From Candidatus Saccharimonadota bacterium (GTDB taxonomy: Archaea; Nanohalarchaeota; Nanosalinia; Nanosalinales; Nanosalinaceae), in NCBI RefSeq assembly GCF_047555085.1, contig NZ_CP180230.1, positions 510,001 through 542,000 of the forward strand: a stretch of 32,000 bases of DNA, read 5' to 3'. The notes under the pieces are model-generated. The model ran no database searches and was not told the origin of the DNA. It saw only the letters and a program-made list of their open reading frames with translations. Within the stretch, counting starts at the first letter, position 1. Each line of letters opens with the position of its first letter. Of this stretch, positions 4,308-31,024 are shown piece by piece. Position numbers and translations under genes: made by a program.

Positions 4308-4808
4308 TTACTTCTTGATCCCGTCGTGGATCCAGTCCATCTGCCACCAGTCATCCATCACCCATTCCTGTTCTTCCTCCTTCGACTCCGGTATCCCCAT
4401 AGGATCGATGAAAACAGGACTGCCATCTGAGATGAAAACATTGCCTATAAGATCGCCATGCGGCTCTAATTCAGGCCTCTGATGGAGCTCGGACACAACT
4501 TCCAGGGCCTCGTTAAATGCCGCTTCCGCCTCCTCAAAGGCGTATCCATCCATAGTAGCGTACTCAAGATTGGCATCTAGATCAAGCCTTTCCATACCGA
4601 CTGCTGCAAGGCCTGTTTCGTCCTCTACAGCAAAGTAAGGTTCCGGGAAGTAATCCGGCAGTACCTCGTAATTATTTCTCAAGGCCTCAAGCTCCTCGCT
4701 GAAATCCGTGTTACGTCTGGAAGTGAACTCTGTTCTCTCATCCCTTCTCTTCAGAAAATAATCCTCGGGTACTTCCTCGGTGTAGAAGACGATATTCTGG
4801 AAGGGCAT
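4308..4808 (-). CDS. small protein with kinase-like catalytic-loop motif (paralog of 9366-9947)
   Basis: 166 aa. It shares MERLD ... HGDLIGNVFISDGSPVFIDPMGIPE with MERFD ... HGDLTNNILYDGETFKFFDPVGEPY of ORF 9366-9947. This resembles the HGDLxxxN / DxG motifs of RIO/Bud32/Kdo-type kinases, but the spacing is atypical. Confidence 0.5.
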   Translation of the reverse strand: MPFQNIVFYTEEVPEDYFLKRRDERTEFTSRRNTDFSEELEALRNNYEVLPDYFPEPYFAVEDETGLAAVGMERLDLDANLEYATMDGYAFEEAEAAFNEALEVVSELHQRPELEPHGDLIGNVFISDGSPVFIDPMGIPESKEEEQEWVMDDWWQMDWIHDGIKK

Positions 4809-23933: not shown

Positions 23934-23979
23934 TTTTTGAAACTTCCATACAAAATACTGCTTGAAGGATTCAGATACT

Positions 23980-25773
23980 ATGACAGAGAAAATCGTTCCT
24001 GACACATCCATAATCATCGACGGAAAACTTTCAGATCTTATAGAGACCGGAGAAGTAGATGCAGAAATTATAATCCCGGAATTTGTCGTTGATGAGCTTG
24101 AGAATCAGGCAAACCGTGGACAGGAAACAGGGTACAAAGGATTCGAAGAGATAAAGAAAATTAGAGAACTATGCGAGGAAAAAGGCCTGGAGCTAAACTT
24201 TACAGGCCGCAGGCCTACAGAGGAAGAGATAAATCTGGCGAACAACGGCCGTATCGATGCATTGATCCGTGACGTCGCCGAGGAAAAATCAGCTACACTT
24301 TATACAGGAGATATCGTACAGGCCCGTGTAGCAGACGCAAAGGGAATCAAACACAGACTTTTCGAAAAAGAACGTGTCACAGAGTTCTCGCTGGAAGAGT
24401 ACTTCGATGAAAAAACTATGAGTGTGCATCTGAAACAGGGAGCAGTACCAAAGGCGAAGAGAGGCCTCCCAGGACAGTTCAGGCTTGAGGAGATAAGAGA
24501 CGAGCCGCTTTCAAAAGAAGATATCGAAAAGATAATTTCAGAGACTATCGAGAAGGCGGAGATCTCGGATGAAGGCCTTATAGAGATGCAGAAGGAAGGT
24601 GCTACAGTGCTTCAGATCGGAAGATACAGGATTGCGATGACCAGGCCTCCTTTCTCCGAGGCTGCGGAGATCACGGCTGTAAGGCCTGTCGCAAAAGTTT
24701 CACTGGACGATTACGAGATGAGTGAGAAGCTTCTCACAAGATTGAGGACAGAGGCCGAGGGAATCCTTGTTGCCGGAGCACCAGGACACGGAAAATCTAC
24801 TTTTGCTCAGGCTCTGGCAGAGTACTACGAGGAGAACAATCAGGTCGTCAAGACTATGGAGAAGCCGCGTGATCTCGATGTAGGCCCTGACATAACACAG
24901 TACTCGGCTCTAGAGGATTCCATGGAGAACACTGGCGACTTCCTTCTACTGGCGAGGCCCGATTACACGATCTTCGATGAGGTCAGGAAGACTTCTGATT
25001 TCGAGGTTTTCTCGGATATGAGGATGGCCGGTGTGGGGATGATCGGTATAGTTCATGCCTCTGAGGCAGTCGATGCCGTGCAGCGTTTGATCGGGCGCGT
25101 AGAGCTGGGAATGATCCCACAGGTCTGTGACACAGTCATCCATATCCGTGACGCAGAGATCTCGAAGGTGTACAAGTTACAGCTGAAAGTTAAAGTTCCT
25201 GAGGGAATGACTGAGGAGGATCTGGCGAGGCCTGTTATACAGATTCAGAACTTTGAGACTGAAGAGGCCGAATATGAGATTTATACTTACGGAGAGGAGA
25301 CAGTTGTCGTTCCTACTTCGGGAGAGACAGAGGAGTCTGGTGCGGAAAGACTTGCGCGTAAGCAGCTTGAGCACCAGTTGAGACAGTACGTGGACAATCC
25401 GGAGATAGAGTTCATTTCAGACGATCATATCAAGTTGTTCGTGGATGAAGACGACATCTCCCATATTATAGGGAAGGGCGGTGAAAATATTGACCGTATC
25501 GAGGAAGAACTTGGTATCGATATAACTGTAGAGCCGAGAGGAGAGATCACAAAACAGAGTGTAGACTACAGTATAGAGGAACGTGGAAAATCTGTTGTCA
25601 TCGAAATCGGAGCAGAATACGCAGGAAAGGAAGTTGATGTCCAGAGAAACGGAGAATTCCTTTTCGCTGCCACAGTCGGGAAGAAAGGTGAAGTCTCACT
25701 GACAAAGGAGTCAGATCTTGCAGACCAGGTGCTCAACGCACATGCCAGAGGCCAGCTACAGGTCAAGTCCTGA
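23980..25773 (+). CDS. PIN domain + PilT-like ATPase + KH domain protein (archaeal COG1855 type)
   Basis: The N-terminus IVPDTSIIIDGKLSDL is PIN-like, the Walker A motif is GAPGHGKST and the C-terminal KH motif is IIGKGGENIDRIEEELGIDI. ATG 23980 is preferred to TTG 23962. Confidence 0.85.
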   Translation: MTEKIVPDTSIIIDGKLSDLIETGEVDAEIIIPEFVVDELENQANRGQETGYKGFEEIKKIRELCEEKGLELNFTGRRPTEEEINLANNGRIDALIRDVAEEKSATLYTGDIVQARVADAKGIKHRLFEKERVTEFSLEEYFDEKTMSVHLKQGAVPKAKRGLPGQFRLEEIRDEPLSKEDIEKIISETIEKAEISDEGLIEMQKEGATVLQIGRYRIAMTRPPFSEAAEITAVRPVAKVSLDDYEMSEKLLTRLRTEAEGILVAGAPGHGKSTFAQALAEYYEENNQVVKTMEKPRDLDVGPDITQYSALEDSMENTGDFLLLARPDYTIFDEVRKTSDFEVFSDMRMAGVGMIGIVHASEAVDAVQRLIGRVELGMIPQVCDTVIHIRDAEISKVYKLQLKVKVPEGMTEEDLARPVIQIQNFETEEAEYEIYTYGEETVVVPTSGETEESGAERLARKQLEHQLRQYVDNPEIEFISDDHIKLFVDEDDISHIIGKGGENIDRIEEELGIDITVEPRGEITKQSVDYSIEERGKSVVIEIGAEYAGKEVDVQRNGEFLFAATVGKKGEVSLTKESDLADQVLNAHARGQLQVKS

Positions 25774-25846
25774 AGTTGACTAATTTCAAAGGCCTCTACA
25801 TTTTTCCCACATTATCTTTTAATCCAAGCAACTCGTTTTCTAGACT

Positions 25847-26812
25847 GTGAAACAGGTACAGATCAACATCCCTGACGAGAACACAGAACAGGTACGTGAA
25901 GTACTTGGGAAATACAGCTCTGACATACTTTCTATGGATGGAGAGAGCGATGAGGAAAAGATAACTGTTCTCACAGCGACCGTAGAATCAGAGGATGTTG
26001 ATGAACTCTCGAAAGAGCTTAAATCGATCAAAGAGCTTGATTCCGGAGAATTGAAGATAAGACTGATCGATCAACAGGCCCTCATAGAGAAAGGGCAGAA
26101 AACGCGTGGCTCATCCACCAAGCTCTCTCAGGAGGAAGTATACAGCAAGGCCCAGGAATCATCAACATTTAACAGGCCTCAATGGATGCTTATGGGACTT
26201 TCATCGGCCATAGCAGCGTATGGGCTTATGCTGAACAATATAGCCGTAGTTATTGGGGCGATGATGCTGGCACCTGTACTTTCACCTATCGTTTCAAGCT
26301 CTATCGCCCTGACAGTCGGCGATGGAAAACTGCTGAAAGAAGGTCTTTTCACAGGTATAGGAGGAGGCCTACTGGCCATACTGATTTCCGGGATCTCTGT
26401 AATCCCTTTCAATCCTACAGTCAACTCCACAATGAATTTAATTGTATCAGCAGGCCTTGAAAATCTGTTGCTGTCTCTTTTCGTAGGTTCAGCAGCAGCT
26501 CTCGCATTCGTCACAGGCTACAGGGATCAGATAGCAGGAGTGGCTGTCGCTGTTGCACTTGTTCCACCGCTTGCAGCTGCAGGAATAGGCCTCAGAGTAC
26601 AGAACTTGTTTTTCACATATAATGCAGTTTCACTTGCACTGATCAACTTGCTTGCAGTACTTGTCTCCGGCTCTGTCTCACTGAAGCTTCTTGGGTTCAA
26701 GCCATCTACATACTACAAGAAAAAGACTGCTGAAAGATTGAGATACGTTCTTCCTGTTGCTGTAGTAGTTATGCTGGCTGTGGCAACGATTTTGCTTATG
26801 AATCCTTACTAG
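25847..26812 (+). CDS. DUF389 family membrane protein
   Basis: 321 aa with a GTG start. A soluble N-terminal domain is followed by about 5-6 TM helices. This architecture and the AVVIGAMMLAPVLSPI / VALVPPLAAAGIGL segments are typical of DUF389 (TIGR00341-like). Confidence 0.7.
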   Translation: MKQVQINIPDENTEQVREVLGKYSSDILSMDGESDEEKITVLTATVESEDVDELSKELKSIKELDSGELKIRLIDQQALIEKGQKTRGSSTKLSQEEVYSKAQESSTFNRPQWMLMGLSSAIAAYGLMLNNIAVVIGAMMLAPVLSPIVSSSIALTVGDGKLLKEGLFTGIGGGLLAILISGISVIPFNPTVNSTMNLIVSAGLENLLLSLFVGSAAALAFVTGYRDQIAGVAVAVALVPPLAAAGIGLRVQNLFFTYNAVSLALINLLAVLVSGSVSLKLLGFKPSTYYKKKTAERLRYVLPVAVVVMLAVATILLMNPY

Positions 26813-26863
26813 AAAGTAAAGATCAGCGGCAGAAATTAAATGAAAAATGAAAGGAGGAAGCCT

Positions 26864-28036
26864 TTAACGCCTCTTCTCCTGTTTCTTGTCCTTTTTCTTC
26901 CCGATGACGGTGTTAAGTTCATCGAGGACTTCATCCATGACTTCAAGCATGTCCCATCCGTCTGCCTGGACATTTGTGATGCCGTACTCTGAATAGAGCT
27001 TGGCATTGAACTCGTAACGGTGTTTCTTGCCGTCTTTCTCCGCTTTCTTGATATGGATCGTCAGTTCTTCAGGACTCTCAAGCTTTCTTCCAAGTGAGCC
27101 ACGGAGCTGTGTCCTTACTTTTTCATGTAAAGCTGCTTTTTCCTCAGGAACTTCTAGGCCTACAAGCTGGACAAGTACTGTGTTAGAGGCCTTGAGGCTT
27201 TCAAGGTGATCGATAAGATCTTTCGCAGTGACAATCGATTCAGGGTACTTACCATCGACGAATACAATCTCTCCTGAATCCTGATCTGTCATCATGCCGG
27301 CAGCTTTGTCGGCTTTCATGTGTTCCTCGCTTGTCGTCACTGTACGCTGCATCAATTCCTCTACAGGGATATCCGACATCTTGTCTTTCTCGTCTCCACC
27401 GGCGATATTGATCTCTTTCGTCCCGTGTCTTCCTCCTGAAGTTCCTCCAGAGTCAGGACTTTCCATAGGAATCATCGCCTTCAGAAGATCTGTACTGCGG
27501 ATGATACCTGTAAGATTCCCGTTCTTATCCACTACAGGAAGACGGGAGATATTATTGTCCAGCATCGTGTGACGTGTCTTTTCCAGAGAATCCTCCTCAA
27601 AGGCCTTTATAACATCCTGTGAAGCGAGATTTCCTGTTGAAACACTGGAGAATTCTTCAGTATCGCTTGCAATTTCAAGGAATTCTTTGTCACCGACTAC
27701 TCCCTGCACTTTTCCTCCTTTAACTCTTACAAGCAATTTTCGTCCAGAGTTAATCCTTAGATCAGCTAGATCAATCAGCGAATCATTTTCATCGTATTCT
27801 GGAGGCTGATGAAGCACCTTGCTTATCTTGGTCTTCTTTGGATTGAACTGGAGATGTCTGATAAGCTCTCTATATCCTATAGCTCCCTGGAATTCTTCAT
27901 CCTTGACAACGGGAACTGCACGGATCTCTTCTTCCTCCATCAAAGCTTTGATCTGTGCAAGATTTTTCTCAGCGGATACTGTTAGAGGATTTTCATTTTC
28001 GACGTCAGAGGCCTGAATGTTAGCTGCATTTTCCAT
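26864..28036 (-). CDS. 4xCBS (two Bateman modules) protein with C-terminal HPF/RaiA (S30AE)-like domain
   Basis: There are four CBS-like repeats (e.g. IRAVPVVKDEEFQGAIGYRELIRHL; ISRLPVVDKNGNLTGIIRSTDLLKAM). The last about 106 aa (26867-27184), VLVQLVGLEVPEEKAALHEKVRTQLRGSLGR...ELTIHIKKAEKDGKKHRYEFNAKLYSEYGITNVQADGWDMLEVMDEVLDELNTVIGKKKDK, follow the beta-alpha-beta-beta-beta-alpha pattern of hibernation-promoting factors. Confidence 0.75.
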   Translation of the reverse strand: MENAANIQASDVENENPLTVSAEKNLAQIKALMEEEEIRAVPVVKDEEFQGAIGYRELIRHLQFNPKKTKISKVLHQPPEYDENDSLIDLADLRINSGRKLLVRVKGGKVQGVVGDKEFLEIASDTEEFSSVSTGNLASQDVIKAFEEDSLEKTRHTMLDNNISRLPVVDKNGNLTGIIRSTDLLKAMIPMESPDSGGTSGGRHGTKEINIAGGDEKDKMSDIPVEELMQRTVTTSEEHMKADKAAGMMTDQDSGEIVFVDGKYPESIVTAKDLIDHLESLKASNTVLVQLVGLEVPEEKAALHEKVRTQLRGSLGRKLESPEELTIHIKKAEKDGKKHRYEFNAKLYSEYGITNVQADGWDMLEVMDEVLDELNTVIGKKKDKKQEKRR

Positions 28037-28051
28037 TTTTTTGTTACACCT

Positions 28052-28552
28052 CTAATCTACAAGGAACTTGTTCTGATCTTCATCCATATCGATGAATTTT
28101 GTAGCTGACTCTCTGATCTCCTTGGCAGATGAGCGTCCGAAGCTCATGACTTCGACACGGCATCCCATCGCCTTCAGGTGATCAACAAGAACTGCGAAGT
28201 CTCCGTCTCCTGTAACAAGGACGACTGTATCAAGCTTCTTTGCCTGCTGGATCATGTCTACTGACATTCCCAGATCCCAGTCTCCTTTCTTGTCACCGCT
28301 GTAGAACTCTTTCAACTCCTTGATCTTGACCTCGTAACCGATTTTACGCAGGGCCTCGAAAAAGTTTTCCTCATCAGGAGTATCTGCCTTGATAACGTAT
28401 GCAGATGCTCTTACAAGCTGCCTGTTCATCACAGCCTTGTCAAGAAGCTTCTTGAAATCAACTTTTGCATTATAGAGATTTTTAGCACTGTAGTACATGT
28501 TTTGGACGTCCACAAAGACGCCTACTCTTTGATCGTCGTGAATTTCAGTCAT
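28052..28552 (-). CDS. NYN domain (LabA/DUF88-like) putative RNase
   Basis: VGVFVDVQNMYYSAKNLY ... DTVVLVTGDGDFAVLVDHLKAMGCRVEVMSF is the NYN/LabA signature. It lies 15 nt upstream of the CBS gene on the same strand. Confidence 0.8.
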   Translation of the reverse strand: MTEIHDDQRVGVFVDVQNMYYSAKNLYNAKVDFKKLLDKAVMNRQLVRASAYVIKADTPDEENFFEALRKIGYEVKIKELKEFYSGDKKGDWDLGMSVDMIQQAKKLDTVVLVTGDGDFAVLVDHLKAMGCRVEVMSFGRSSAKEIRESATKFIDMDEDQNKFLVD

Positions 28553-28679
28553 TTTTCAAATCACTCTCAATAAAAGACCCTTGAAAAAAGGCCTATACCG
28601 AATTTTTAAGTCGAAAATTTTCCAATTTTCAAGGATAAAAACGACGGCGAGGCTTAAAAGTTAACCGATTCCTGAAAAA

Positions 28680-29345
28680 TCAGGAACCCTTCACAGAACT
28701 GACATGAAGGCCTTTACTTCCGACACCGTACAGATAACTGACTTCGCTTTCTGTCAGAGGCCTGTCATAAATCCGCAGTTCATCGATAAATCCATTGAAT
28801 CTTTCGTCATCAGAATACACTCCGCCGTCACGTCCTGTACTTCCGACAATAAAATCATCTCCAGGCGTGGTCCAGGAAGAACTCTGCATTGAGGCCTTGA
28901 GCTCTCCGTCTATATACAGTTTGACTTCTCCCGAAGATTTCCTCGTGACAACGGCGTGGTACCACTGATTCTCCGAGGCCCCGGCTTTTGATTCAAGATT
29001 CGTCCTGTCAAATCGGAAGACAAGATCATTCCCGCCGTCAATATAGTTTTTATCGAAGAGAAATCCCCATCCTGCCGTAGTATCAAATCCAAGAAGCCTG
29101 TCGTTATTATCAAGGCCTGTCCTGTTGTACCAGAAAGATATACTGAATTCTTCAGAATCAGAGAACTGGAAGTTAGGCCCGAGATTGACATAGTCAGTGA
29201 AGCTATCAAATCTGAAACAGTTCCCATTCAGAATCCCGGAACTATTTCTGGAGGTCACACTCAAGTCAGAACTACTGTAGTCGTTGCCGGAAAGATCCAG
29301 CAAATCTCCTTCAGACTGTTCAAAATTGTAGTATGCTCTGAGCAA
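28680..29345 (-). CDS. LamG/concanavalin-A-like domain protein
   Basis: 221 aa with a TTG start 7 nt after the upstream stop. Motifs: LRAYYNFEQSEGDLLDLSGND...FRFD...FSISFWY...WYHAVV...VKLYIDG...IDELRIYDRPLTESEVSYLY. Confidence 0.75.
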   Translation of the reverse strand: MLRAYYNFEQSEGDLLDLSGNDYSSSDLSVTSRNSSGILNGNCFRFDSFTDYVNLGPNFQFSDSEEFSISFWYNRTGLDNNDRLLGFDTTAGWGFLFDKNYIDGGNDLVFRFDRTNLESKAGASENQWYHAVVTRKSSGEVKLYIDGELKASMQSSSWTTPGDDFIVGSTGRDGGVYSDDERFNGFIDELRIYDRPLTESEVSYLYGVGSKGLHVSSVKGS

Positions 29346-29352
29346 AAAACTG

Positions 29353-30741
29353 TCACCTCGAATTTACTGTAAACTTCCTCAAGTCACGGCCTCTAGTCCC
29401 CCAACGATACAGCTCGAAGACTTCTGAAGGAGACAAGGCCTTGTCATAAATCCTGACATCATCAATGTCTCCATCCATGTATTCATCTCCACTTCGGTCT
29501 CCTATACTTGTTTTAGAGAACTGTTTCGTGTTTGGAGTATTGCCGTTTCCTCCGGAGGCTGCCCTACTGCCGTTCATATAAATACTCATTTGATAATCCG
29601 ACGGACGGCAAACAAAGGCAAGATGATACCATTCTGAATTAATGACAGTTTCAGGAGATGTAATATGAGAATTCTGGCCCGAATTAGAGTACCAGAACTC
29701 AGGTTTCTCGTTTTCATTTACACGTGTGTCCCACCAGGCATTAGCTCCATTTCCCGCCCATACAGTTTTCCTGGCTCCTGTACTTGAAGTATTCACCCAC
29801 GCAGAGACAGTTATCCCTGTAGAAGTGAAATCCTCCGAAAGACTGTTACCAGAATTAACGCTAACGAAGTCACCCTGAGATGAATTAAATCTCTTGGACT
29901 GACCTCTCACCCCGTTTGAATAACCAGTAGACGTCTGATCACTCGAAGAATAAGAACCCCACGAATCATCCACGTTCCCATCAAAGGCCCATCTCGAGAC
30001 TGCAGAAGGACTATTATCATTATTAAGAGGTCTCACATAGTCTCCATTGCCCCACTCGTAAAGCGTCTGGATTTCAGATTGAGAAAGAGACCGGTTGTAT
30101 ACCCTCATAGGGCCGCTTGTAAAATCTGTATATGTCTCTGACTTTCCATCCCCCTTGTTCCTTGCACCCATGAAGTATGCACAGTTCTCTGAATCATGAT
30201 CTGTCTGGAAGTTAGGCATTCCATCGAAGGCCTCAGAGGCCTTTTGTACACCATCTACAAAAAGCCTGATCTGTGATCCATCGCAAGTTACCGTTATATT
30301 GTACCATTTATCAGGATCTACAGATTCTCCTGTTGAAATATGATATCTCTGAGTTGAAGAACTACCTTCACCTCTATACGCTCTCAAGTATATACCGCCT
30401 TCAGCCCAAGTGCCATCATCTACACCTACAGAAATCGAATTATCATTACCGGCATTTGAACCATCATAATCCGTCACACCTTCCATTGTATTGGCCGTGG
30501 TATTTGGCTTGATCCATCTAGAGATGCTAAAACTACCTCCTGCAGAAATTAAATCATTCATAGATCCTATATTGACATATCCGCTATTCCCCTCGAAGCT
30601 TATTGCCTCAAGGCCTCCTTTACCAGCTACGCCCTGTGTAAGGCCTCCGTTCAGATTCCCGTGATTTCCGTTGCCAGAAAGATCATAGGCCTTTGATCCG
30701 GATTTTTCGTGTAGAGGCCACCAGCCAATCAATCCAGTCAT
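29353..30741 (-). CDS. tandem LamG-domain protein (two LamG modules)
   Basis: 462 aa. The first module runs LIGWWPLHEKSGSKAYDLSGNGNHGNL ... MRVYNRSLSQSEIQTLY and the second SRWAFDGNVDDSWG ... IDDVRIYDKALSPSEVFELY. It is Ser/Asn/Gly-rich and has no signal peptide. Confidence 0.8.
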   Translation of the reverse strand: MTGLIGWWPLHEKSGSKAYDLSGNGNHGNLNGGLTQGVAGKGGLEAISFEGNSGYVNIGSMNDLISAGGSFSISRWIKPNTTANTMEGVTDYDGSNAGNDNSISVGVDDGTWAEGGIYLRAYRGEGSSSTQRYHISTGESVDPDKWYNITVTCDGSQIRLFVDGVQKASEAFDGMPNFQTDHDSENCAYFMGARNKGDGKSETYTDFTSGPMRVYNRSLSQSEIQTLYEWGNGDYVRPLNNDNSPSAVSRWAFDGNVDDSWGSYSSSDQTSTGYSNGVRGQSKRFNSSQGDFVSVNSGNSLSEDFTSTGITVSAWVNTSSTGARKTVWAGNGANAWWDTRVNENEKPEFWYSNSGQNSHITSPETVINSEWYHLAFVCRPSDYQMSIYMNGSRAASGGNGNTPNTKQFSKTSIGDRSGDEYMDGDIDDVRIYDKALSPSEVFELYRWGTRGRDLRKFTVNSR

Positions 30742-30876
30742 CTCTACTTAATCTTTGTAGAGGCCTGTGTTAAATCTGTTTGCAGAGAAACGGGAAATTT
30801 TAGGAGAAAAATTGATGCAGTGTCCGAAAATCTCAATGAGATTTTCTTAAGCAAGCAAATGAGAAAATTTGCGGCC

Positions 30877-30893
30877 GAAGCAGTATCTGCTTC
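30877..30893 (-). terminator. hairpin downstream of tRNA-Gly
   Basis: GAAGCAG-TAT-CTGCTTC is a perfect 7 bp stem. On the minus strand it follows the T-rich stretch directly after the tRNA 3' end. Confidence 0.35.
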
Positions 30894-30919
30894 TCTGAGC
30901 ATCAAAAGAAATTTTTTGA

Positions 30920-30991
30920 TGCGGTGTCCGGGATTTGAACCCGGGTCGCGTGCATGGCAAGCACGAGTCGTAGCCACTGGACCAACACCGC
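30920..30991 (-). tRNA. tRNA-Gly (anticodon GCC), no encoded CCA
   Basis: Folded manually from the reverse complement GCGGTGTTGGTCCAGTGGCTACGACTCGTGCTTGCCATGCACGCGACCCGGGTTCAAATCCCGGACACCGCA. It has a 7 bp acceptor stem, a 5 bp anticodon stem with loop TTGCCAT, a 5 bp T stem with loop TTCAAAT, and discriminator A. Confidence 0.95.
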
Positions 30992-31024
30992 TTTCCTGTG
31001 TAAAGTAAGAAGTGGTGTTACTGT

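Follow-up and report, generated by a model that had tools for sequence, protein, structure and literature searches.

A predicted HibA/AHA-family ribosome hibernation factor of Nanohaloarchaea and its conserved NYN gene neighbour

The window analysed here, a stretch of 32,000 nucleotides (nt) from contig NZ_CP180230.1 (assembly GCF_047555085.1, positions 510,001 to 542,000 of the forward strand), comes from a genome deposited as Candidatus Saccharimonadota bacterium and placed by GTDB in the archaeal family Nanosalinaceae of the Nanohalarchaeota. Two adjacent genes of its minus strand are the subject of this work. The upstream one codes for a LabA-like NYN protein, and the downstream one for a protein of 390 amino acids that combines four CBS motifs with a C-terminal domain resembling HPF/RaiA, the hibernation-promoting factors of bacteria. 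We consider it very likely, with a probability of roughly 0.85, that the latter is the nanohaloarchaeal orthologue of HibA/AHA, a family of archaeal ribosome hibernation factors, in an explanation that includes its place in a two-gene unit with the NYN gene. The downstream gene is hereafter referred to as hibA.

Two adjacent genes on the minus strand

The first gene of the pair (28052-28552) encodes a LabA-like, COG1432-type NYN protein of 166 amino acids, which is a predicted metal-dependent ribonuclease. It is separated by a spacer of 15 nt (28037-28051) from hibA (26864-28036), the stop codon of which lies at 26864-26866. The sequence-only reading, made from the letters and the translated open reading frames before any database search, had described two minus-strand genes 15 nt apart, and both are indeed found at these positions. 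Within HibA, the N-terminal CBS tetrad (residues 1-283, 27188-28036), delineated by Pfam CBS matches, Foldseek and conserved motifs, includes in its third motif (CBS3) a long Gly-rich loop (residues ~189-222, 27371-27472) that corresponds to the 'PTC loop' of HibA, named after the peptidyl-transferase centre (PTC), and to 'loop 3' of AHA. The HPF/RaiA-like C-terminal domain (residues 285-390, 26867-27184), identified by profile, Pfam and fold searches, ends in a Lys/Arg-rich tail (K380-R390, 26867-26899).

The final nucleotide of the NYN stop codon is shared with a Shine-Dalgarno-like GAGGTG (28047-28052), whose end lies 10 nt ahead of the hibA ATG. Since the spacer is too short to accommodate a separate archaeal promoter, we infer that both genes are co-transcribed.

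Affiliation of the 390-residue protein with HibA/AHA

The four CBS repeats recognized by the sequence-only reading are borne out by three lines of evidence. Pfam CBS matches the window protein with an E-value (E) of 1.8e-30 in three significant stretches. The AlphaFold2 model of the full-length protein, with a predicted local distance difference test score (pLDDT) of 83.8, comprises four beta-alpha-beta-beta-alpha units, that is, the four CBS motifs characteristic of HibA/AHA. Finally, Foldseek aligns 277-320 columns of this model to the four-CBS proteins AMPK-gamma, MJ1225, SriA/SriD and Dri (E 1e-13 to 1e-17). Conserved among the orthologues are the motifs G177-x3-S181-x-D183 of CBS3 and T270-x-K272-D273 of CBS4, of the ribose-binding types G-h-h-x-S-x-D and T-x-K-D, which suggests that together they form a putative adenine-nucleotide site. 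The CBS3 insertion counts ~30 residues (189-222) and appears disordered in the model (pLDDT <50 for residues 191-220). Its residues G197, G198, G201, G213, G214, E216 and K217 show little or no variation. It aligns with the loop of the family that bears a GEK motif, exceeds the family consensus by ~14 residues, and agrees in location with residues 190-207 of Pyrococcus abyssi HibA; its entry into the PTC is a prediction. By homology, the CBS tetrad of the window protein would be both a 50S-binding and an adenylate-binding module.

In the fold search with the full-length model, the CBS tetrad dominated the matches and the C-terminus was uninformative; the C-terminal domain was therefore modelled alone (pLDDT 90). 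Against the PDB, the best 37 Foldseek matches of this isolated domain are all hibernation factors of the HPF/RaiA/YfiA/pY/RafH/MPY kinds, among which are chloroplast pY, Escherichia coli HPF and YfiA, Thermus thermophilus protein Y, mycobacterial RafH/MPY and the long HPFs of Firmicutes. The best match has an E of 8.7e-7 and the leading ones extend to 1e-3, with template modelling (TM) scores mostly between 0.6 and 0.73 over the best 37. A profile search with the C-terminal domains of 26 orthologues retrieved 12 PDB sequences at E <=10, ten of which are bacterial HPF/RaiA/protein Y (best 2YWQ, E 1.1e-3), and 24 of the 26 domains individually match PF02482, the best with an E of 8.3e-9. The proposal that the final ~106 amino acids are HPF/RaiA-like, made by eye, is thereby upheld; it had picked up a real if faint sequence signal, given the weak, sub-threshold matches of the window protein to PF02482 and TIGR00741 that are detailed below. 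Basic residues conserved in the nanohaloarchaeal domain include K300, R317, K318, K331 and R340.

The best PDB sequence match of the whole protein is chain H of 9SR9 (phmmer, E 2.7e-19), an entry that Madru et al. (Nat Commun 2026; PMC13324472) list in their data-availability statement as P. abyssi HibA with ATP bound. This protein (PAB0961) counts 392 amino acids, divided into a four-CBS module (1-269), with the PTC loop at 190-207 in CBS3, and an HPF/RaiA-like domain (270-392); its structures are available as PDB 9SR9-9SRF and 9T7H (PMC13324472). HibA was reported in 47% of archaeal genomes (PMC13324472), or in 42% of archaeal species according to another paper. AHA is an independent description of the same family, based on HVO_2384 of Haloferax volcanii (Souza et al., bioRxiv 2026; PMC12934967), and the queries of its survey included a protein of Candidatus Nanohalobium (PMC12934967).

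Comparison of profiles extends this similarity to the entire length of the protein. An hhalign comparison of the nanohaloarchaeal alignment with 67 distant family members gave a probability of 100% and an E of 3.8e-72 over 380 columns, end to end, a span that includes both the CBS3 loop and the HPF domain. In a representative-level search, hundreds of proteins of 350-420 amino acids match end to end at 21-42% identity. Relatives of P. abyssi HibA (P0214, 41% identity) are present in the wider set of matches, as are relatives of 9L96_a (P0232, 45% identity), a chain of a ribosome complex. The close homologues of the window protein are all from Nanohaloarchaea. Conversely, the profile of C-terminal domains did not retrieve the C-terminus of P. 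abyssi HibA from the PDB sequences, the phmmer alignment to that C-terminus (domain 3) is non-significant, and the Foldseek search of the PDB (entries to 2026-04-08) returned neither 9L96 nor the HibA entries (9SR9 and related). As the profile and phmmer searches missed it, the link to the C-terminus of HibA itself rests on the hhalign comparison with the wider family and on the fold. With a CBS tetrad, a CBS3 loop, an HPF domain and end-to-end homology, the window protein belongs to HibA/AHA on every computable feature.

The view of the sequence-only reading that an archaeal CBS-HPF fusion is not a standard annotation has been overtaken by the publication of HibA/AHA, and JGI already uses the name 'CBS domain-containing protein/ribosome-associated translation inhibitor RaiA' for some homologues. 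Before 2025, the recognition of an archaeal CBS-HPF hibernation factor would have counted as a genuine discovery. The family, including nanohaloarchaeal members, was published in 2025-2026, and the window protein is a new, uncharacterised member of it. The value of the present assignment therefore lies in the correct annotation of a protein whose precomputed Pfam record (P0001) lists CBS only, consistent with its sub-threshold score on PF02482.

The NYN protein and the conservation of the gene pair

The identification of the upstream product as a NYN/LabA-like protein is confirmed: its match to PF01936 spans all 145 model positions (1-145) with an E of 4.5e-38 and 131.4 bits (threshold 24.2), and its closest PDB structure is the LabA-like 2QIP/VPA0982 (E 4e-29). 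Residues D15, N18, D91, D93, D116 and D118 are invariant across 29 orthologues. With reference to the four-acidic-residue model of the PIN-like metal-binding site (PMC5499597), the predicted active site is intact, all predicted catalytic aspartates being kept. Only nanohaloarchaeal proteins occur among the best 120 of the 3710 matches of the NYN homologue search. Identity to the nanohaloarchaeal orthologues amounts to 77-96% for NYN versus 49-65% for HibA, and NYN is thus under the stronger constraint.

Five loci (L005, L008, L009, L013 and L015) contain an antisense open reading frame that overlaps the NYN gene and, being longer, displaces it in a longest-frame gene call. NYN was found in all five by tblastn, and the antisense frame is probably a non-coding shadow. 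Simple gene callers could hence miss NYN in loci of this kind.

Altogether, 38 nanohaloarchaeal loci were recovered, 37 of which include the upstream flank. In every one of these 37, the gene immediately upstream of hibA on the same strand is NYN. Between the NYN stop and the HibA start, the median distance is 5 nt, with values of -4 to 16 nt in 31 of the 34 measurable loci; the three larger gaps are probably due to the ATG-only rule used for start codons, since GTG codons occur near the NYN stop in these loci. Even in the divergent locus L047, the HibA of which is only 40-42% identical, NYN is still 78% identical and directly upstream. The pair is part of a longer block composed of genes for an apurinic/apyrimidinic (AP) endonuclease of family 2, an SBF transporter, NYN, HibA, a 119-amino-acid open reading frame, a DUF389 protein and a PINA ATPase. 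NYN-HibA is the sole pair of this block that is never interrupted, all other junctions showing insertions or losses. The window itself departs from the class consensus on both flanks, with two LamG-domain genes upstream and the 119-amino-acid frame missing, while the pair is intact. The NYN-hibA pair is therefore a class-wide, tightly spaced and never-interrupted two-gene unit.

Beyond the Nanohaloarchaea, the neighbours of hibA differ. Eight distant loci (Thermoplasmata-type, other DPANN and unassigned) have unrelated neighbours, and NYN was not found among them; NYN was not found within 4 kb of hibA in five haloarchaeal-type loci (about two lineages) either. In three sister-lineage loci (HibA identity ~34-38%), the position upstream of hibA is taken by a divergently oriented gene without a Pfam match, not by NYN, and DUF389 is kept downstream. 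At the contig end of one locus, L048, an 18-residue match to the NYN N-terminus (4376-4429, plus strand; 78% identity, E 3e-4) lies ~2.2 kb downstream of hibA, beyond DUF389, and NYN is not upstream of hibA there; NYN may thus be nearby yet not operonic in L048. The hibernation-factor papers covered by a term search make no mention of NYN or LabA, and a full-text literature search combining NYN, archaea, ribosome and hibernation gave nothing relevant. The NYN-hibA operon appears to be lineage-specific, and we could not find it described in the literature.

The sequences that flank the pair offer a few candidate signals. The 5' region (28553-28614, minus strand), a candidate promoter/operator, contains a Shine-Dalgarno-like GAGAGTGA (28561-28568) and the element TCGACTTAAAAATTCGG (28598-28614); a GAGGT-like motif precedes the NYN ATG by 8-12 nt in most loci. 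Of 38 loci, 12 contain a palindrome-like sequence of the form TCGA[TC]-N4-10-[AT]TCG[AG] in the 90 nt upstream of the NYN start, where the background is 0.012 per 90 nt; owing to the relatedness of the loci, these counts are not independent. The element lies at -35 to -45 from the NYN ATG in L002, L003, L005, L007-L010, L013, L016, L020 and L033, and is often followed by TTTTCT. It could be a B recognition element (BRE)/TATA promoter or an operator of the NYN-hibA unit. Past the hibA stop codon, the T-rich tract TTTCATTTTTCATTTAATTTC (26830-26863, minus strand) is a weak candidate for an archaeal oligo-T terminator, and a run of at least five T within 60 nt of the hibA stop was seen in 17 of 39 loci. 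Scans for sigma-70 promoters and intrinsic terminators yielded nothing beyond the shuffled expectation, both models being inapplicable to archaea.

Regarding the wider neighbourhood, the two genes located just upstream of NYN in the window (28680-29345 and 29353-30741, both on the minus strand) encode adjacent Laminin_G_3/concanavalin-A-like lectin-domain proteins of 221 and 462 amino acids (E 8e-27 and 1e-45), at a place where most other nanohaloarchaeal loci have a gene of the AP-endonuclease family, often followed by the SBF-transporter gene. Since orthologues were found in none of the 38 loci, the LamG pair was apparently inserted in a strain-specific manner and may code for surface or host-interaction proteins. 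On the other side, a gene for a DUF389/TIGR00341 membrane protein (25847-26812, plus strand) is convergent with hibA; DUF389 also adjoins hibA in the sister lineage without a NYN neighbour (L048 and L050). Further along, a 603-amino-acid protein (23962-25773, plus strand) combines PIN, AAA ATPase and KH domains and matches NCBIfam PRK13764 (E 5e-242). Its match to the PINA Holliday-junction branch-migration ATPase model (E 2e-139) lies under the cut-off of that model. This PINA-like gene is conserved, with 61-83% identity, in the majority of nanohaloarchaeal loci, where it is found close to hibA but on the other strand. The HibA, DUF389 and PINA genes of L037, a contig named 'MAG: Colwellia polaris' (JBLGBK010000010.1), are nanohaloarchaeal, with 54-79% identity to the window proteins; this is almost certainly a mis-binned archaeal contig within a bacterial metagenome-assembled genome. 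The sole RNA gene detected in the window is a tRNA-Gly (GCC; 30920-30991, minus strand), and the short open reading frames at 30744-31008, which overlap it, are probably spurious.

Possible function, rival explanations and known systems

The proteins of P. abyssi, Thermococcus barophilus and Hfx. volcanii bind the 70S ribosome, at the decoding site of the 30S subunit and at the tRNA/PTC region of the 50S subunit, inhibit translation and preserve stationary-phase ribosomes. By homology with them, the window protein would be a ribosome-silencing hibernation factor (PMC13324472, PMC12934967). Its HPF/RaiA-like domain would occupy the 30S decoding centre and the mRNA/tRNA channel, contacting the decoding nucleotides, with the basic tail extending toward the mRNA exit channel, while the CBS tetrad would dock on the 50S subunit, where the long CBS3 loop could enter the PTC. 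Such a two-module fusion would keep idle 70S ribosomes assembled, block translation and shield the active sites from nucleases. In the solved homologues, the CBS tetrad was seen on the 50S subunit in several positions, in one of which the CBS3 loop wraps a PTC adenine that is conserved universally. [quoted passage not shown] The suggestion that CBS acts as a ligand sensor controlling the HPF-like domain calls for correction: in the solved homologues, the tetrad goes beyond sensing and also binds the ribosome in its own right, on the 50S subunit, with its CBS3 loop inserted into the PTC. Energy-charge gating of the hibernation factor, as suggested by the sequence-only reading, is a plausible hypothesis.

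Several observations weigh against the assignment to HibA/AHA or against its extension to NYN. The window protein itself remains below curated thresholds for bacterial HPF/RaiA. It scores an E of 0.0016 on PF02482 (residues 301-385; 19.6 bits for the full protein and 22.7 for the isolated domain, with a gathering score of 23.7) and 0.0012 on the TIGR00741 yfiA/HPF model (19.2 bits versus a cut-off of 40.9), the PF02482 threshold being passed by its orthologues. The domain is thus homologous to the fold class without being a member of the bacterial family sensu stricto, in agreement with the separate clade formed by archaeal HPF-like domains (PMC12934967). The phmmer comparison with P. abyssi HibA is significant in the CBS region only. 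The experimental record on the family comes from P. abyssi, T. barophilus and Hfx. volcanii, none of them nanohaloarchaeal, and according to the authors of the HibA study neither AMP nor ATP clearly altered the binding to ribosomes (PMC13324472). Regarding NYN, a 2017 survey of the PIN superfamily reported none of the LabA-type NYN.COG1432 proteins as a demonstrated nuclease (PMC5499597). The longer block that surrounds the pair is partly syntenic class-wide, so that part of the NYN-hibA adjacency could be inherited gene order. Finally, NYN was not found beside HibA in the 16 loci from other lineages, and HibA therefore clearly works without NYN.

Could the 390-residue protein be a generic CBS-domain regulator acting off the ribosome, such as an HhpR-like transcription factor or a metabolic sensor, with a superficial resemblance to HPF? 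CBS tetrads are known from many functional contexts, NCBIfam HhpR matches the CBS region (E 1.4e-9, far under the cut-off), and the sub-threshold PF02482 and TIGR00741 scores would fit. On the other hand, HhpR-type proteins have no HPF domain, the isolated domain retrieved hibernation factors for all of its best 37 fold matches, orthologues reach highly significant scores on PF02482, and profile homology to HibA/AHA runs end to end, CBS3 loop included, all of which makes this explanation very improbable. We attach an equally slight probability to a defence or toxin-antitoxin-like module in which NYN would be the effector or toxin and the CBS-HPF protein its sensor or antidote. The PADLOC model for LabA-like NYN nucleases matches the NYN domain (E 1.4e-14), and the CBS anti-phage protein DS11 of NCBIfam gives a weak, CBS-only match to HibA (45.9 bits versus a cut-off of 260), but both are domain-level matches only and HibA has no PADLOC match. 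Moreover, the pair occupies a conserved chromosomal position in every recovered nanohaloarchaeal locus rather than a variable island, and NYN is 77-96% identical class-wide, unlike fast-evolving defence genes. The domain-level nature of the PADLOC match, the conserved position and the very high sequence conservation together render a role in defence unlikely.

A far more serious contender leaves the identity of HibA unaffected and concerns the pair only: NYN and hibA could be co-transcribed or simply adjacent housekeeping genes of small and compact genomes, kept together by inherited gene order and devoid of any shared function. We give this explanation slightly less than even odds. It accounts for flanking genes that often occur in the same order, for the different and unrelated neighbours on the 16 HibA contigs from other lineages, and for the silence of the hibernation-factor papers searched about a NYN/LabA partner. 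It sits less well with the fact that NYN-HibA alone stays uninterrupted throughout, in 37 of 37 loci as well as in the window and in L047, with a consistently narrow spacing, whereas every other junction of the block, in the window as elsewhere, is broken by insertions or losses. The sequence-only reading had envisaged joint action of the ribosome binder with an RNase; what holds of this proposal is the strict conservation of the pair, but within Nanohaloarchaea only, the pair being absent from all other HibA lineages sampled. That NYN and HibA are functionally linked through a shared role in ribosome or RNA turnover is thus a tentative proposal, to which we would give somewhat more than one chance in four but less than an even one.

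A more specific version of the functional link is doubtful. In this scenario, hibA would have been recruited next to a LabA-type NYN gene to form a translationally coupled operon, giving rise to a ribosome-fate module in which NYN degrades or processes ribosome-associated RNA and HibA decides which ribosomes are spared. For example, NYN might remove mRNA or tRNA, or break down unprotected ribosomes so that nucleotides are salvaged in a DPANN symbiont not known to make its own, and HibA would meanwhile protect a reserve. Canonical RNase R, the enzyme that breaks down unprotected ribosomes in bacteria, is for the most part missing from Archaea (PMC13324472). If the scenario were true, it would provide the first role assigned to a LabA-type NYN protein, a large family without demonstrated biochemical function (PMC5499597), as well as the first dedicated nuclease partner of an archaeal hibernation factor. 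The NYN-hibA unit, in which the nuclease is far better conserved than the hibernation factor, constitutes a concrete and testable candidate for a nuclease-protector relationship. The lineage consists of host-dependent archaea with cultivable members, for which the preservation of ribosomes during host-free periods is plausibly important.

Placing both proteins among known systems delineates what is shared and what is specific to Nanohaloarchaea. Compared with bacterial HPF/RaiA (YfiA, pY; PF02482, TIGR00741), the C-terminal domain of the window protein has the same fold and a weak but specific sequence similarity, but is fused to a CBS tetrad instead of standing alone or being joined to a dimerisation domain; the archaeal clade of this domain is distinguished by two insertions and a longer terminal helix, and occupies the same 30S site as bacterial HPF/RaiA (PMC12934967, PMC13324472). 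SriA-D of M. acetivorans (PMC13454478), ARC-P/ARC-A of Methanolobus (bioRxiv 2026.01.19.700304) and Dri of Pyrobaculum (9E6Q) are stand-alone CBS tetrads without an HPF domain, which act as paired separate proteins or as a double tetrad and rarely co-occur with HibA. The CBS tetrad of the window protein is structurally close to SriA (Foldseek, E 3e-16), SriD (1e-14) and Dri (2.5e-14), and HibA was proposed in the literature to derive from a SriA-like ancestor. Membership in the Sri or ARC-P/ARC-A groups is ruled out by the presence of the HPF domain, which those proteins lack, and no second CBS-tetrad gene occurs among the open reading frames listed for 24000-31000. With LabA-like NYN proteins (NYN.COG1432), such as VPA0982 of Vibrio parahaemolyticus (PDB 2QIP) and LabA of Synechococcus, the NYN protein of the window has in common the full-length NYN domain and all conserved acidic residues; it differs from other family members by its unusually high conservation within Nanohaloarchaea and its fixed position upstream of hibA there. 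Lastly, the window protein and the HibA/AHA proteins of P. abyssi and Hfx. volcanii have a common architecture and similar lengths (390 amino acids here, 392 in P. abyssi), although relatives sampled from outside the nanohaloarchaeal group share only ~20-30% identity with the window protein. Two features set the nanohaloarchaeal members apart within this family: the longer CBS3 loop with its class-invariant SGGTSG...GG-D/E-EK signature, and, relative to the HibA of other sampled lineages, the position of hibA as the second cistron behind a NYN gene.

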